Assembly (NCBI GenBank): GCA_021802505.1
Contig: JAJZXE010000003.1
Coordinates: 8,926-72,925, forward strand
DNA: 64,000 nt
Origin: Nanobdellota archaeon
GTDB taxonomy: Archaea > Nanobdellota > Nanobdellia > Parvarchaeales > Parvarchaeaceae
Direction: 5' to 3'
Shown here: positions 457 to 29,684 of the stretch, one piece after another
Layout: each line of letters starts with the position of its first letter
Position numbering within the stretch: position 1 is the stretch's first letter
Translations under genes and position numbers: made by a program
The notes under the pieces: generated by a model
The model's database searches: none
What the model was told of the DNA's origin: nothing
The model's input: the letters and a program-made list of their open reading frames with translations, nothing else

Positions 457-468
457 AAAGTATTTATA
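457..468 (+). promoter_or_regulatory. BRE/TATA-like box for ORF 491
   Basis: AAAGTATTTATA lies 23-34 nt upstream of ATG 491. The same 11-mer recurs at 26026. Confidence 0.4.
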
Positions 469-490
469 CTAGTTTTAATCGTAAGAATCT

Positions 491-1195
491 ATGGGACTTT
501 TTGATGTGATAAACTTTGCAGCCGAGAAGGCATATAAAAAATACAAGGGATCGAAGATGGAGAGTGCCATGGATGCCCTTCTTAGCGCTTTGGAAACGAA
601 TTCCGTTAACATAGAAGTTTTGCCCTACAAGGAAGGTGAGGATTACCACGTAATAAAAGGGAGGGTTTACAGATTAAAGAATGAAGAGATGGGCAGTTCA
701 ACAGCTCCGTACTTTTTAACCACCAGCGACTGGCTTGTAAAAGGGGGCGTCGATATCAATAATGACAATATCTACCATTCTTCCTTTCTTGAAAAAGGAG
801 CATATACTTCTATAAAATTAAGGGAAAAATATCTGAATTTAGCAAAGAATTATTCGGCTAAATATGGTTCTAATTCAGTACTAACCTCACTGTTTGTATA
901 TCTACCTGAAAGTAAATTTTTAATGGCGATGCCAAGATACATAAGGGATAAACACGGTACGGTCCTGATTGCAAATAAAGTTGCGCACGAAGATTTTAAT
1001 GCGTTTGAAAAGATGAGGGCCGAGCACCCTGAGAATATGGTAAATAATCTGCACAATTTTTATTACAGAGCGAAATTTTTTGCATATCTTGTCGCGAATG
1101 AGCTCAATCAATACGATAAAACTAACTTGGATAACGCATTCAGTAAATTTGAAGAAAAACACGGACACGGTGCAGAGATTTCCTATACTTATTAG
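491..1195 (+). CDS. hypothetical cytoplasmic protein (234 aa)
   Basis: Clean ORF behind a TATA-like box. No hydrophobic segment and no family motif recognised. Confidence 0.6.
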   Translation: MGLFDVINFAAEKAYKKYKGSKMESAMDALLSALETNSVNIEVLPYKEGEDYHVIKGRVYRLKNEEMGSSTAPYFLTTSDWLVKGGVDINNDNIYHSSFLEKGAYTSIKLREKYLNLAKNYSAKYGSNSVLTSLFVYLPESKFLMAMPRYIRDKHGTVLIANKVAHEDFNAFEKMRAEHPENMVNNLHNFYYRAKFFAYLVANELNQYDKTNLDNAFSKFEEKHGHGAEISYTY

Positions 1196-24615: not shown

Positions 24616-25899
24616 ATGAATATCATGGATGTGGAGCTTTTAAAAGTCATAATAGAAGAGCAAAGAGAAAAGATCGAAAAACTGGTAAGAAACGAAAACA
24701 TAATAGAAAGAGAATTGAAGGTGAATGGATTGATAAAAAATCCAAATTCACTGGTAATATTGGGCGTTAGACGGGCTGGCAAATCGATACTTTCGATACA
24801 GACCTTCTATGGCAGAAGATTTGCTTATATAAATTTTGATGATGAGCGGCTTATAGATTTAAACACACAGGATCTTAACAAAATATTACAGGTCTTTTAT
24901 GAATTATACGGACCAAATGTAGATAATTTAATTTTTGATGAAATACAAAATATACGTGGTTGGGAATTGTTTATAACACGGTTAAGAGACACCAATAAAG
25001 TTATAGTAACCGGGTCGAATTCCAATCTTTTGGGAGGAGAACTGGCTACTCGTCTTACGGGCAGGCACATAGATGTCACGCTTTTTCCATTCAGTTTCAA
25101 AGAGTTTTTGAAATACAAAAACTTTGAAGTCAAAGGCGCATTGACTACAAGGGAAAAAGCACAATATATTTCTCTGTTTAGAGACTATCTAAAAAACGGG
25201 GGGTTTCCAGAAGCGGTAAAATCCGGCAAAGAAATTATTACAAGCATATACAACGATATATTAAGCAAAGATATAATAACCCGGCACAAAATAAAGAAAG
25301 GAGAAGATCTGAGAAAGATAGCAAAGTATCTGATTTCAAATTCGGCGAACGAGTTTACCTTTGAATCGTTAAGGGGGTTAAGTGAAACGACCAGTCTAAT
25401 AACCATATCAAATTGGGTTAGATACCTGGAGGAGGCATATCTTGTATTTCGGCTTGAAAGGTTTTCGTTTAAATTGAAACAGACGTTTAAAGCGCCTAAA
25501 AAAATATATTGTATTGATAATGCGATTATAAACAGCATAGGCATCAAACTATCCGAGGATTTTGGTGGTTTGATGGAGAATCTGGTTGCAATAGAATTAT
25601 TCAGACAGAAAAGTTATAATAGATACCAGCAAGAAATATACTATTGGAAGGACTATCAGCAACACGAAGTGGATTTCTTAATCAAAGAACATTTCAAAGT
25701 AACCCAAATAATACAGGTGACGTACGCATCTTCCATGGAATTTATAAAGCCGCGAGAAATAAATAATCTTTTATTTGCATCCAAAGACCTTCACTGCAAC
25801 AATCTTTTAGTCATAACCTGGGACTATGAAGCTCAGGAAAAAATAGAAGGCAAGACGATAAAGTTCATCCCTTTGTGGAAATGGCTTCTTAAGGTTTAG
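24616..25899 (+). CDS. AAA+ ATPase with DUF4143 (COG1373 family)
   Basis: Walker A GVRRAGKS and Walker B LIFDEIQ. The C-terminal half is typical of COG1373. Confidence 0.8.
   Translation: MNIMDVELLKVIIEEQREKIEKLVRNENIIERELKVNGLIKNPNSLVILGVRRAGKSILSIQTFYGRRFAYINFDDERLIDLNTQDLNKILQVFYELYGPNVDNLIFDEIQNIRGWELFITRLRDTNKVIVTGSNSNLLGGELATRLTGRHIDVTLFPFSFKEFLKYKNFEVKGALTTREKAQYISLFRDYLKNGGFPEAVKSGKEIITSIYNDILSKDIITRHKIKKGEDLRKIAKYLISNSANEFTFESLRGLSETTSLITISNWVRYLEEAYLVFRLERFSFKLKQTFKAPKKIYCIDNAIINSIGIKLSEDFGGLMENLVAIELFRQKSYNRYQQEIYYWKDYQQHEVDFLIKEHFKVTQIIQVTYASSMEFIKPREINNLLFASKDLHCNNLLVITWDYEAQEKIEGKTIKFIPLWKWLLKV
25789..25871. repeat. 83-bp direct repeat, copy A (inside the 3' end of the ATPase gene)
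   Basis: 79 of 83 nt identical to 29574-29656 by hand alignment. Confidence 0.85.
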
Positions 25900-26025
25900 C
25901 TTTCTGCCTGTAGATTGCAACCTTTGCGTATCTATTGATATTATATTTCTGTTCTTCTTTCTTCCACTGTTTTTACGCTTTCCATCCTCGGAGTTGCGAT
26001 TTAAGACTTGCCGGCGCCTTTTCGT

Positions 26026-26039
26026 AAAGTATTTATTTA
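26026..26039 (+). promoter_or_regulatory. BRE/TATA-like box of the DUF2341 pilin-like gene
   Basis: AAAGTATTTATTTA. The same 11-mer occurs at 457-467. Confidence 0.45.
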
Positions 26040-26063
26040 CTCTCTCTCTCTCTCTCTCTCTCT
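26040..26063. repeat. (CT)12 dinucleotide microsatellite between TATA box and start codon
   Basis: Perfect CTCT... tract of 24 nt, followed by TAT and ATG 26067. Confidence 0.95.
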
Positions 26064-26066
26064 TAT

Positions 26067-27479
26067 ATGAGATTGACGCATAAATCGCAATCAGCATTAG
26101 AATACATGATGACCTACGGCTGGGCCATTCTGATCATAGTCATCGTAGCGGTAATCCTGTACAGCATGGGTATATTCAATCCTTCAAGCAGTGTAACTTT
26201 TACATCAAGCGGTTTCAGTCCATTCATAATATCCTCTGCTTTATGCAACAACCTGGGTTTAAACCTGGCAGTAGAAGCAGGTCCTATCCCGAACAATGCA
26301 CCGTATCTGCAGATAAAGAAGGTCTTTGTAACCTCTTCTTCAGCCGTAAACACAACAACGGCTAGTTATTCCCTTCCTTCTCCTATAACATTGAAATCAG
26401 GACAGACTGCAAATATATTAGTCCCGGATATTGCCTGTAACACGGCAAAAAGCAGGTATACAATCGCAGCAAATCTCCAGTATTACTACTCGGCAGCGGG
26501 CCTGGCGGTAAATACCAATACAACGGGCACAATAGCCGGAACATCGATATCCGGAAAACCCTCTGTAATAACATCCTATGTACCGGTGAGCATAACCAAT
26601 ACTCAGTCCTCATCAATCCCTCAGCCCTTCCAGCAGATGGTTAACATAACATCCTTAGACTCAGGTTGGACAGATATCGCATCCTCTCCCTTCGGCCAGA
26701 ACGTGGAGTTCTTTTACTACAACGGCACGATAATCCCCAGCTGGCTGGAAAACTACACCTCAAATCATGCGTTGTACTGGATAAAGACGGAGAGTATACC
26801 CGCTTCCTCATCAATAACGGTCTACATGGGCTTCGCTCCCACTTCGACAAATCTTTTTAACACTGTGAATGTAGGAGAGGCACCACAGCTTTCGGCAACA
26901 TACGGACAATACGATGACGGGGCGAACGTGTTCAATTTCTATGATAATTTCGCTGGAACTTCGCTGCCAAGCGGATGGGCTGTTTATAGTGGCGGTGGCT
27001 CATACTCTGTTAACAACGGATTAATAGTCACTTCAACAAGTAGTTCATCGACTGAAAGCATAGAATCCCCTACATTTAATTCAAATCCAGGTATAGTTGA
27101 ATGGCTTAGTGCGCCATTTATAAATAGCGTAAGCGGTGATCTACAGGAAGGGATGGGCCCTTTTAATTGTCCAGATCCAGGTAGGTTCTTTTATGATTTA
27201 TCACCATCGTCTGCAGAGATTTTTACTGGCGGCAGCGTTAATCTTCAGAATAATATAAATAATAACATATTCGGTTACGTTTTCAATGGCACAAACTCAA
27301 CTTTCTCTTTTAATTATAAAACTGTCGATGTGACCCCTGCAGGAAATCCTTATCCAGATGTCTTCTGTGATGGCAACCAAAACACCGGTACATCAATGCC
27401 GATGTTAATGTGGTTCCGTGTACGTGCATATCCTCCCGCAGGCGTAATGCCTTCCGTGACTTTCGGGAGCGTTTCTTAA
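26067..27479 (+). CDS. class III signal peptide (archaeal type IV pilin-like) protein with DUF2341/LamG-like domain
   Basis: MRLTHKS/QSALEYMMTYGWAILIIVIVAVILY is the common archaeal pilin N-terminus. ALYWIKTESIPASSSITVYMGF and NVFNFYDNFAG are typical of DUF2341. Confidence 0.85.
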   Translation: MRLTHKSQSALEYMMTYGWAILIIVIVAVILYSMGIFNPSSSVTFTSSGFSPFIISSALCNNLGLNLAVEAGPIPNNAPYLQIKKVFVTSSSAVNTTTASYSLPSPITLKSGQTANILVPDIACNTAKSRYTIAANLQYYYSAAGLAVNTNTTGTIAGTSISGKPSVITSYVPVSITNTQSSSIPQPFQQMVNITSLDSGWTDIASSPFGQNVEFFYYNGTIIPSWLENYTSNHALYWIKTESIPASSSITVYMGFAPTSTNLFNTVNVGEAPQLSATYGQYDDGANVFNFYDNFAGTSLPSGWAVYSGGGSYSVNNGLIVTSTSSSSTESIESPTFNSNPGIVEWLSAPFINSVSGDLQEGMGPFNCPDPGRFFYDLSPSSAEIFTGGSVNLQNNINNNIFGYVFNGTNSTFSFNYKTVDVTPAGNPYPDVFCDGNQNTGTSMPMLMWFRVRAYPPAGVMPSVTFGSVS

Positions 27480-29447: not shown

Positions 29448-29544
29448 AATAATCTATTCTGATTTTCGTCTACCGTAATGTATACCCTACACATACCTTT
29501 GTAAATTAGGGTTGTTTATACACTTATGTTTAATATGAACATAA

Positions 29545-29684
29545 TTGACAATCTCCTAATCGCCTCCGAAGAACTTCACTGCAACAATCTTTTAGTCATA
29601 ACCTGGGACTACTAAGCTCAGGAAAAGATAGACGGCAAGACGATAAAGTTCATCCCACTGTGAAAGGGGCTCCTTAATATAAAG
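29545..29684 (+). pseudogene. decayed 3' fragment of a COG1373 ATPase gene (contains repeat copy B)
   Basis: Translates to IIDNLLIASEELHCNNLLVITWDY*AQEKIDGKTIKFIPL*KGLL. The intact gene 24616-25899 has EINNLLFASKDLHCNNLLVITWDYEAQEKIEGKTIKFIPLWKWLL. Confidence 0.75.
29574..29656. repeat. 83-bp direct repeat, copy B
   Basis: 79 of 83 nt identical to 25789-25871. Confidence 0.85.

Follow-up and report, generated by a model that had tools for sequence, protein, structure and literature searches.

A hypervariable (CT)n tract in the TATA-to-ATG spacer of a pilin-like surface gene: a possible repeat-based expression switch in a Parvarchaeota archaeon

A perfect (CT)12 microsatellite fills the spacer between a BRE (B recognition element)/TATA-like box and the start codon of a pilin-like surface-protein gene in a Parvarchaeota archaeon. 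The stretch of DNA analysed, which we call the window, comprises 64,000 nucleotides (nt) of contig JAJZXE010000003.1 (contig C8 in our numbering) and belongs to a 763-kb, 28-contig genome with 40.8% G+C. An earlier note on this stretch had suggested that the tract might act as a phase-variation switch, in which the gain or loss of CT units moves the start of transcription relative to the ATG. In this article, we follow up that suggestion by comparing the locus with its counterparts in other assemblies, with the promoters of the same genome, and with the repeats of related genomes. The features on which the analysis draws are the following:

26026-26039, plus strand: BRE/TATA-like box AAAG-TATTTATTTA, in which the hexamer ATTTAT begins at 26031 (from the sequence).
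26040-26063, plus strand: perfect (CT)12 microsatellite, which makes up the whole TATA-to-ATG spacer and is the hypervariable element (sequence and Tandem Repeats Finder).
26064-26069, plus strand: TAT (26064-26066) followed by the ATG (26067), which lies 36 nt from the start of the TATA hexamer.
26067-27479, plus strand: gene for a 470-residue surface protein with a class-III (prepilin-type) signal peptide and a DUF2341 domain (Pfam, alignment and AlphaFold).
25900-26025, plus strand: T-rich intergenic stretch 3' of a DUF4143 ATPase gene (sequence and list of open reading frames, ORFs).
24616-25899, plus strand: upstream same-strand AAA_14/DUF4143 ATPase gene, the synteny anchor for orthologous loci.
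457-493, plus strand: comparison promoter, AAAGTATTTAT followed by ATG 491, with its ATTTAT hexamer at -29, the canonical leaderless spacing.
25807-26097, minus strand: spurious antisense ORF ('...KRERERERV...') made by the CT tract (ORF list).

The layout described in the earlier note is borne out by the sequence, in which the perfect (CT)12 lies between the box and the TAT-ATG and, by virtue of this position, sets the distance from TATA to ATG; in the window allele, the ATG falls 7 nt past the canonical 29 counted from the start of the TATA hexamer. The remark that no other long simple repeat was noticed in the window agrees with Tandem Repeats Finder, which reports the tract as the sole period-2 array there. 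A whole-genome scan places it as the sole non-AT dinucleotide repeat of at least five units in the entire 763-kb genome, the next longest array being (AT)8, and the number of such tracts expected from base and dinucleotide composition is about 3e-9. Likewise, the 11-mer said to be shared by two promoters, AAAGTATTTAT, has exactly two copies in the window, one at 457, 34 nt ahead of ATG 491, and one at 26026, 41 nt ahead of ATG 26067. Shuffled sequences contain a mean of 0.22 matches to this 11-mer, with two or more matches in 3 of 100 shuffles, which makes the sharing no more than mildly unusual; we regard the 11-mer as an instance of the TATA/BRE type common in the genome.

The intergenic stretch ahead of the box (25900-26025) is conserved at 98.5-100% in all assemblies, and inspection of its sequence revealed no ATG and no good alternative TATA box. 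Read-through transcription from the upstream ATPase gene was considered and held unlikely because this region is T-rich. On the opposite strand, the antisense 'RERERE' ORF has been called as a gene of 92-102 residues in several other assemblies, its length tracking that of the CT tract. As a (CT)n.(GA)n mirror repeat, the tract could, in principle, also adopt a triplex (H-DNA) structure.

The gene downstream of the tract encodes a protein whose N-terminus, MRLTHKSQSALEYMMTYGWAILIIVIVAVILY, consists of a short charged N-region, a glutamine at +1 and a glutamate at +5, followed by a hydrophobic helix. Cleavage is predicted between MRLTHKS and QSALEY, that is, between MRLTHKS and QSALEYMMTYGWAILIIVIVAVILY, immediately before Q8 and with the Glu at +5, and this motif is invariant across homologues. 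Farther along the chain, Pfam recognizes DUF2341 at residues 210-304 (nt 26694-26978; E = 4.9e-9), the C-terminal third is variable, and an AlphaFold model of low confidence (predicted local distance difference test, pLDDT, of 54) places an N-terminal helix at residues 10-33 ahead of a beta-sandwich. The earlier description of the gene as pilin-like is upheld in part: the class-III-type N-terminus, the helix, and DUF2341 speak for it, but a search of the 470-residue protein against Pfam and NCBIfam profiles found no pilin or class-III-signal model, even at E <= 10, and the label rests on sequence features rather than on a match to a curated model. Profile searches of the genome also identified a prepilin peptidase (Peptidase_A24 at C22:32896-33237, 53 bits) and an assembly ATPase (T2SSE at C1:9550-10251, 127 bits).

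Homologues of the protein number more than 1000 and come mostly from Parvarchaeota, the named ones being from Candidatus Parvarchaeota or Parvarchaeum (ARMAN-4, of the archaeal Richmond Mine acidophilic nanoorganisms). Among them, the QSALEYMMTYGWAIL block is invariant and MRLTHKSQSALEY is conserved, and because both are kept, we take ATG 26067 as the true start rather than the codon for M14. Many assemblies begin the pilin at M14 (26106, 457 residues), thereby losing the N-region of the signal peptide.

Across strains (the window; L269, L186, L189, L276, L267, and L175), identity is 98.5-99.8% from the promoter through the (CT)n tract and into the first 40-50 codons, and the gene body behind this constant module is, in each case, a different DUF2341 cassette (488, 520, 491, and 504 residues), that of L175 diverging from nt 812. 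As far as the aligned sequences can tell, the arrangement is like that of an expression site in which recombination exchanges the pilin bodies. At another locus (L192; genome G020, contig C18, ~22004), the same TATA-(CT)9-ATG module and signal peptide precede a passenger built of YVTN-type beta-propeller repeats, not DUF2341; the promoter and signal cassette is therefore common to different passenger domains.

Counterparts of the locus were found by exact-protein look-up in ENA MEGAHIT assemblies, NCBI metagenome-assembled genomes (MAGs), and JGI, and all length data come from assemblies, not reads. What we call the window lineage comprises 21 assemblies, including the window genome, in which the 40-nt flanks of the tract show no difference; the acid-mine samples behind ERZ27237474, ERZ27237444, and JGI 3300033990 are among those that contain it. 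Within this near-identical set, the (CT)n tract falls into seven length classes:

n = 12: 2 assemblies.
n = 13: 7 assemblies.
n = 14: 6 assemblies.
n = 15: 3 assemblies.
n = 16: 1 assembly.
n = 18: 1 assembly.
n = 21: 1 assembly.

The surrounding DNA hardly varies. Over up to 7.3 kb, there are 0 mismatches to the window in L002 (n = 18), L007 (n = 14), L010 (n = 13), L012 (n = 14), and L009 (n = 15), and the ORF is 100% identical in 14 of the 16 assemblies compared, with at most one nucleotide of difference in 15 of the 16. As a control, we used the promoter of paralogue P0037, which lacks a long repeat and is identical in nine of ten assemblies from partly overlapping samples, the single variant (L182) being a change in a short AT run. 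Evidently, on this comparison of sequences, the CT tract mutates orders of magnitude faster than single bases.

Two alleles probably coexist within individual samples. The k = 141 contigs of L012 and L014 share a starting point exactly 115 nt ahead of the tract, and 115 equals 141 minus 26, which is the branch point expected in the de Bruijn graph if (CT)13 stands beside (CT)14; the coexistence of these two alleles in both samples is thus read from contig break points, not from read counts. Exact-pattern scans of metagenome and viral contig sets, which may lack near-identical records, added no more alleles.

To place the spacing of the window allele in context, we surveyed the positions of TATA-like hexamers relative to the first ATG of 638 ORFs of at least 150 residues. 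The hexamers peak sharply at -28/-29 (100 and 86 counts versus a background of ~12), and the Shine-Dalgarno-like peak is small; on these grounds, most transcripts in the genome should be leaderless, in keeping with what the earlier note had stated about archaeal mRNAs. The pilin relatives follow the same rule: in 12 promoters from other species that belong to the pilin subfamily M.LTHKSQSALEY, the same box stands at -27 to -31, ahead of a CT-rich but non-repetitive spacer, and three more (CT)7-9 promoter-spacer loci in two other species have their TATA hexamer at -26. The L050 promoter reads AAAGTATTTATTTA-CTCTCTCTATTTCTCTATTAT-ATG, and its spacer looks like an unexpanded ancestor of the CT tract.

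Only one other species representative in the genus has the same intergenic DNA. This sister haplotype is 98.5% identical upstream, and one linked G-to-A single-nucleotide polymorphism (SNP; position 26014) separates the haplotypes with long and short alleles. Its tracts are short, namely n = 7 (L269), an interrupted 16-nt tract (interrupted 8; G006), and n = 9 (four assemblies), so that the TATA hexamer stands at -26, -28, and -30. The length is therefore far from invariant across the related strains whose comparison the earlier note had called for, with seven values between 12 and 21 in the 21 assemblies and 7-9 in the sister haplotype. A box 26-31 nt before the ATG is found in the relatives and in the sister haplotype (-26 to -31) but not in the window allele (-36), and the window lineage as a whole is the outlier, with its TATA hexamer at -36 to -54. 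In these alleles, the predicted start of transcription falls inside the purine-free tract, 7-25 nt before the ATG, without a Shine-Dalgarno sequence.

Repeats at the 5' ends of pilin genes are not confined to this locus. In a gene-first survey, we collected pilin N-termini in 79 loci of species-representative genomes and examined the 160 nt upstream of each of the resulting 91 sites; ten of the 91 have a substantial repeat, (CA)5-12, (AG)11, (AT)5, (CAGA)7, or (ACAG)10, and the background is three dinucleotide repeats in 394 kb. In a repeat-first survey, 40 genomes of the order (G000-G039, ~29 Mb) were searched for the repeats themselves, with the following outcome:

(CT) of at least 7 units: 4 sites, in the TATA-to-ATG spacer of a pilin-like gene.
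(CA) of at least 7 units: 5 sites, inside a leader ORF of a pilin-like gene.
(ACAG) of at least 4 units: 18 sites, 11 of them in genome G008, directly upstream of a pilin N-terminus.

All 27 repeats lie directly upstream of a QSALEYMMTYGW-type pilin N-terminus (in two, the end of the contig or locus cuts the motif), and the zones upstream of pilin genes make up only ~0.3% of the sequence. At the CA and ACAG loci, the repeat sits inside a leader ORF that begins with a leaderless ATG, has its TATA box at -28 to -31, and runs into the pilin. Five of the (ACAG)n leader ORFs are in frame and ten are out of frame; both states are also present among the CA loci, where a single gene with identical flanks reads in frame in L261, which has (CA)10, and is shifted out of frame in L202, which has (CA)12. 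Judged from the reading frames, this is the signature of classical frameshift contingency loci, and most of the repeats of the genus (at least 27) would work by frameshift in a leader ORF, unlike the window locus.

Several of these loci deserve a separate description. Genome G008 contains 11 separate (ACAG)4-20 loci (contigs C4, C9, C16-C20, C24, and C28; L223, L240, L242, and L253-L260), each with its repeat in the leader ORF (MKPESSVYITDRQTDRQT...) of a pilin-like gene and several at contig ends. In L228, L239, L245, and L028, which carry (ACAG)n/(CAGA)n of the G033 type, the out-of-frame leader ORF ends in ATGTTAA, overlapping the ATG of the pilin (MLTKKGQSALEY); termination-reinitiation coupling could operate across such an overlap, in which case the frame 'OFF' state is perhaps not fully off. 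Outside the window, at C24:35454-35565 of genome G000, a paralogue has a 37-residue in-frame leader (MFNSRKDNN...HFLHTKLNQNKRSQSALEY) with a C7 homopolymer inside it, and long translated leaders therefore exist even without a long repeat.

Beyond the order, related loci in JGI metagenomes are distant DPANN pilins only, with at most 40% identity to the window protein over most of its length, and an upstream repeat was found in one of 80 such pilins from other habitats. The phenomenon thus appears specific to acid-mine Parvarchaeota and some Micrarchaeota rather than DPANN-wide. Profile searches of the order recovered neither MutS (MutS_V above cut-off) nor NucS in any of the 40 genomes, and known mismatch repair seems, from these searches, to be absent from the whole order; this absence would account both for the instability of the repeats and for the general avoidance of repeats outside the pilin loci.

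Other repeats were noted in the genome of the window. The longest AT repeat of G000, an (AT)8 at C28:102913-102928 and hence outside the window, occupies the place of the TATA box ahead of a gene for a signal-anchored DUF2341-like surface protein (at least 600 residues), 17 nt before its ATG, and is a candidate for a second promoter repeat. Between two direct repeats of 135 nt in the window (25758-25892 and 29543-29677), which are 85% identical and 3785 nt apart, lie the pilin gene, a second DUF4143 ATPase gene, and two small minus-strand ORFs, one of them for a Polbeta-like nucleotidyltransferase. The repeat at 25758-25892 forms the 3' end of the upstream ATPase gene.

What the sequences establish is where the tract lies, that it is unique and hypervariable, that relatives conserve the spacing, and that long repeats are restricted to pilin genes. 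The interpretation that we favour, with a probability of roughly 0.6, is that (CT)n serves as a functional spacer switch or dimmer of the pilin-like gene. The same confidence extends to its being a slippage-prone microsatellite that belongs, with others at the 5' ends of Parvarchaeum (ARMAN) pilin-like genes, to a set of repeat-based contingency loci spanning the genus. The locus displays the traits by which contingency loci are recognized: a repeat beyond chance expectation, hypermutability, a position in the TATA-to-ATG spacer, and a surface-type target with recurrence at related genes. The position of the start and any effect on expression are what we infer, and the long alleles of the window lineage are probably low or off.

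The proposed mechanism would operate as follows. Archaeal RNA polymerase would begin at a fixed distance downstream of the TATA box, which in this genome would normally coincide with the A of the ATG, and each CT unit gained or lost would shift the ATG by 2 nt relative to the start of transcription. Short alleles (n = 7-9), with the TATA hexamer at -26 to -30, would keep the leaderless geometry and are predicted to be ON. With alleles of 12-21 units (-36 to -54), including the window allele of n = 12, transcription is predicted to start within the purine-free tract, and the mRNA would acquire a CU leader of 7-25 nt without a Shine-Dalgarno sequence. Such a leader may lower or silence expression, in which case the tract would act as a dimmer or impose an OFF state.

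A broader proposal, to which we assign about even odds, is that Parvarchaeum species (ARMAN-4/5-type) run a multi-locus repeat 'phasome' for type-IV-pilin-like proteins, which would be the first contingency-locus system described in Archaea. Its first layer would consist of frameshift switches, (CA)n and (ACAG)n in translated leader ORFs, at up to 11 loci per genome; the second, of an archaea-specific promoter-spacer dimmer in which (CT)n sets the distance from TATA to the leaderless ATG; and the third, of DUF2341 bodies recombined behind a constant module of promoter and signal peptide. Together, these layers would randomize which adhesins a cell displays, and this randomization could serve attachment to Thermoplasmatales hosts or evasion of pilus-using viruses. 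Loss of mismatch repair would make such a system possible.

Several points weigh against the spacer-switch interpretation. All 21 assemblies of the window lineage are long, and reversible ON/OFF toggling within one lineage is not seen; the toggling between leaderless and start-codon-lacking transcripts that the earlier note had envisaged does not show in the observed alleles, which all lie on the long side (-36 to -54). A return to n = 7-9 would need several contraction steps, and the window lineage seems to be drifting from one low or off state to another. From the alignments, the division into short and long appears to be confounded with the linked SNP haplotype and with different gene bodies. 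The sister haplotype has the same n = 9 in four assemblies, and it may be that short tracts are just stable. Nor would a CU leader necessarily shut the gene off, since some archaea translate leadered mRNAs without Shine-Dalgarno sequences. Without mismatch repair, any long repeat would vary, and variability alone is no proof of function. Finally, the 27 sites are not independent, paralogy leaving perhaps 3-4 origins.

Some of these points feed the strongest competing explanation, a serious contender that we nonetheless consider clearly less probable: a neutral, tolerated microsatellite, in which a CT-rich spacer expanded by slippage in the absence of mismatch repair, the polymerase starts inside the tract, and the short CU leader is translated normally. 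The lack of MutS and NucS should render any repeat unstable, lengths from 12 to 21 spread without an obvious optimum, the gene is intact in all assemblies, and the ancestral spacer was already CT-rich. Neutrality does not sit easily, however, with a TATA-ATG spacing kept tightly at -26 to -31 in every relative or with the frame-switching states at the sister loci. Moreover, the genomes are otherwise nearly repeat-free and 27 of 27 long repeats lie at pilin 5' ends, a pattern hard to explain otherwise, and for this reason we favour selection on placement. It is also conceivable, but unlikely, that expansion switched the gene off for good in the window lineage, so that a former switch now drifts in length without constraint while the gene starts to decay. 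That all 21 assemblies of the lineage stand at -36 or farther, while the sister haplotype keeps canonical spacing with little variation, is what such a history would predict; yet the 16 ORFs compared hold no nonsense or frameshift mutation and 15 of them differ by at most 1 nt, a divergence too low for a selection test, and recombination still places different gene bodies behind one promoter, which suggests a site in use.

Two further explanations carry very little weight. The tract might itself be translated, since a TTG at 25994 opens a leader ORF (MRFKTCRRLFVKYLFT(LS)n...) that stays open into the tract and would be in frame with the pilin at n = 13, 16, and 19, making a frameshift-type switch like that of the sister loci, which use leader ORFs through their repeats. 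However, there is no TATA-like box 26-31 nt upstream of this TTG, TTG is an unlikely leaderless start, and every CT-type relative has its TATA box immediately next to the tract and lacks an upstream start codon; 8 of the 21 alleles (n = 13 or 16) would be in frame, the one third expected by chance. We rejected the TTG leader on the missing upstream box and on this chance-level fraction. Slightly less credible still is that errors of assembly or sequencing at a low-complexity site produced the differences in length: dinucleotide repeats do stutter in libraries based on the polymerase chain reaction (PCR), and the data are assemblies throughout, but tracts of 14-42 nt are well within k = 141 and read length, the lengths differ by up to nine units, and the same phenomenon recurs in four sources (ENA MEGAHIT, NCBI MAGs, JGI, and the window genome). 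The invariance of the P0037 control promoter in overlapping samples and the multiplicity of independent sources led us to reject this explanation as well.

In bacterial pathogens, phase variation driven by repeats is a textbook form of bet-hedging, and the pattern reported here points to phase variation of this bacterial style in an archaeon. The principle is known; what would be new is the domain of life and the geometry from TATA to leaderless ATG, and a multi-locus repertoire in an environmental symbiont is unexpected. A 2025 review of phase variation, which also provides general background, lists its archaeal distribution as an open question for future work (PMC11868660), and our literature searches returned no report of repeat-driven phase variation in ARMAN or DPANN archaea. 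If the spacer-switch interpretation is true, ultra-small, uncultivated archaeal episymbionts in a non-host environment would have reached the same evolutionary solution for their attachment organelles, with the addition of a mechanism peculiar to archaea, in which a repeat sets the distance from TATA to the leaderless start. It would also offer a testable handle on the surface proteins that mediate contact between ARMAN cells and their hosts, for which pili have been proposed (PMC10134863). For annotation, loci of this kind are a source of error, as gene callers truncate starts to M14, call spurious 'RERERE' ORFs, and extend N-termini through repeats.

Among known systems, the closest in layout are those with a slippage-prone repeat in the core promoter. 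The fimbrial genes hifA and hifB of Haemophilus influenzae undergo promoter-spacer phase variation by a (TA)n repeat between the -35 and -10 boxes, and the opc and porA promoters of Neisseria meningitidis carry poly-C/poly-G tracts. As in the window locus, the repeat lies in the core promoter of a surface or fimbrial gene and the number of units sets a critical spacing; by this means, expression is graded or switched in the bacterial genes, as it would be at the window locus, and the protein is unchanged. Unlike theirs, the spacing of the window locus runs from an archaeal TATA box to a leaderless start codon and not between sigma-70 hexamers, and the predicted effect would be to displace the start of transcription with respect to the ATG, hence to alter start choice and the mode of translation.

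Repeats in mRNA leaders offer a second parallel, with the G-repeat of Helicobacter pylori tlpB in its 5'-untranslated region (5'-UTR) or leader (PMC8295292) and the intergenic repeats of H. influenzae acting through 5'-UTR structure (PMC12721329). In these systems, as proposed for the window locus, a variable repeat between promoter and start codon alters the leader of the mRNA and, through it, the output. These leader repeats need a small RNA or RNase III targeting of a structured leader, whereas no such partner is known for the window locus, whose canonical state is without a leader.

Frameshift contingency loci are exemplified by the tetranucleotide repeats of H. influenzae, the (CTCTT)n of Neisseria opa in the region coding for the signal peptide, and the CT repeats of H. 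pylori oipA. The sister (CA)n and (ACAG)n repeats resemble classical loci of this kind (PMC2651432, PMC5084427) in that they fall within the part of a pilin gene that encodes the leader peptide; about one third of them are in frame, and the 11 such loci in one species recall the multi-locus repertoire of Haemophilus. Whereas the classical loci belong to host-associated bacterial pathogens, those described here occur in archaea, namely DPANN episymbionts of acid mine drainage; leaderless mRNAs and class III signal peptides are involved, and the window locus itself is not of the frameshift type.

Finally, diversity-generating retroelements target surface proteins in DPANN archaea, and they share with the window locus the targeted hypervariation of surface proteins in ultra-small symbiotic archaea. 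The retroelements mutagenize the coding sequence by means of reverse transcriptase, whereas the system proposed here would switch expression through repeat length.

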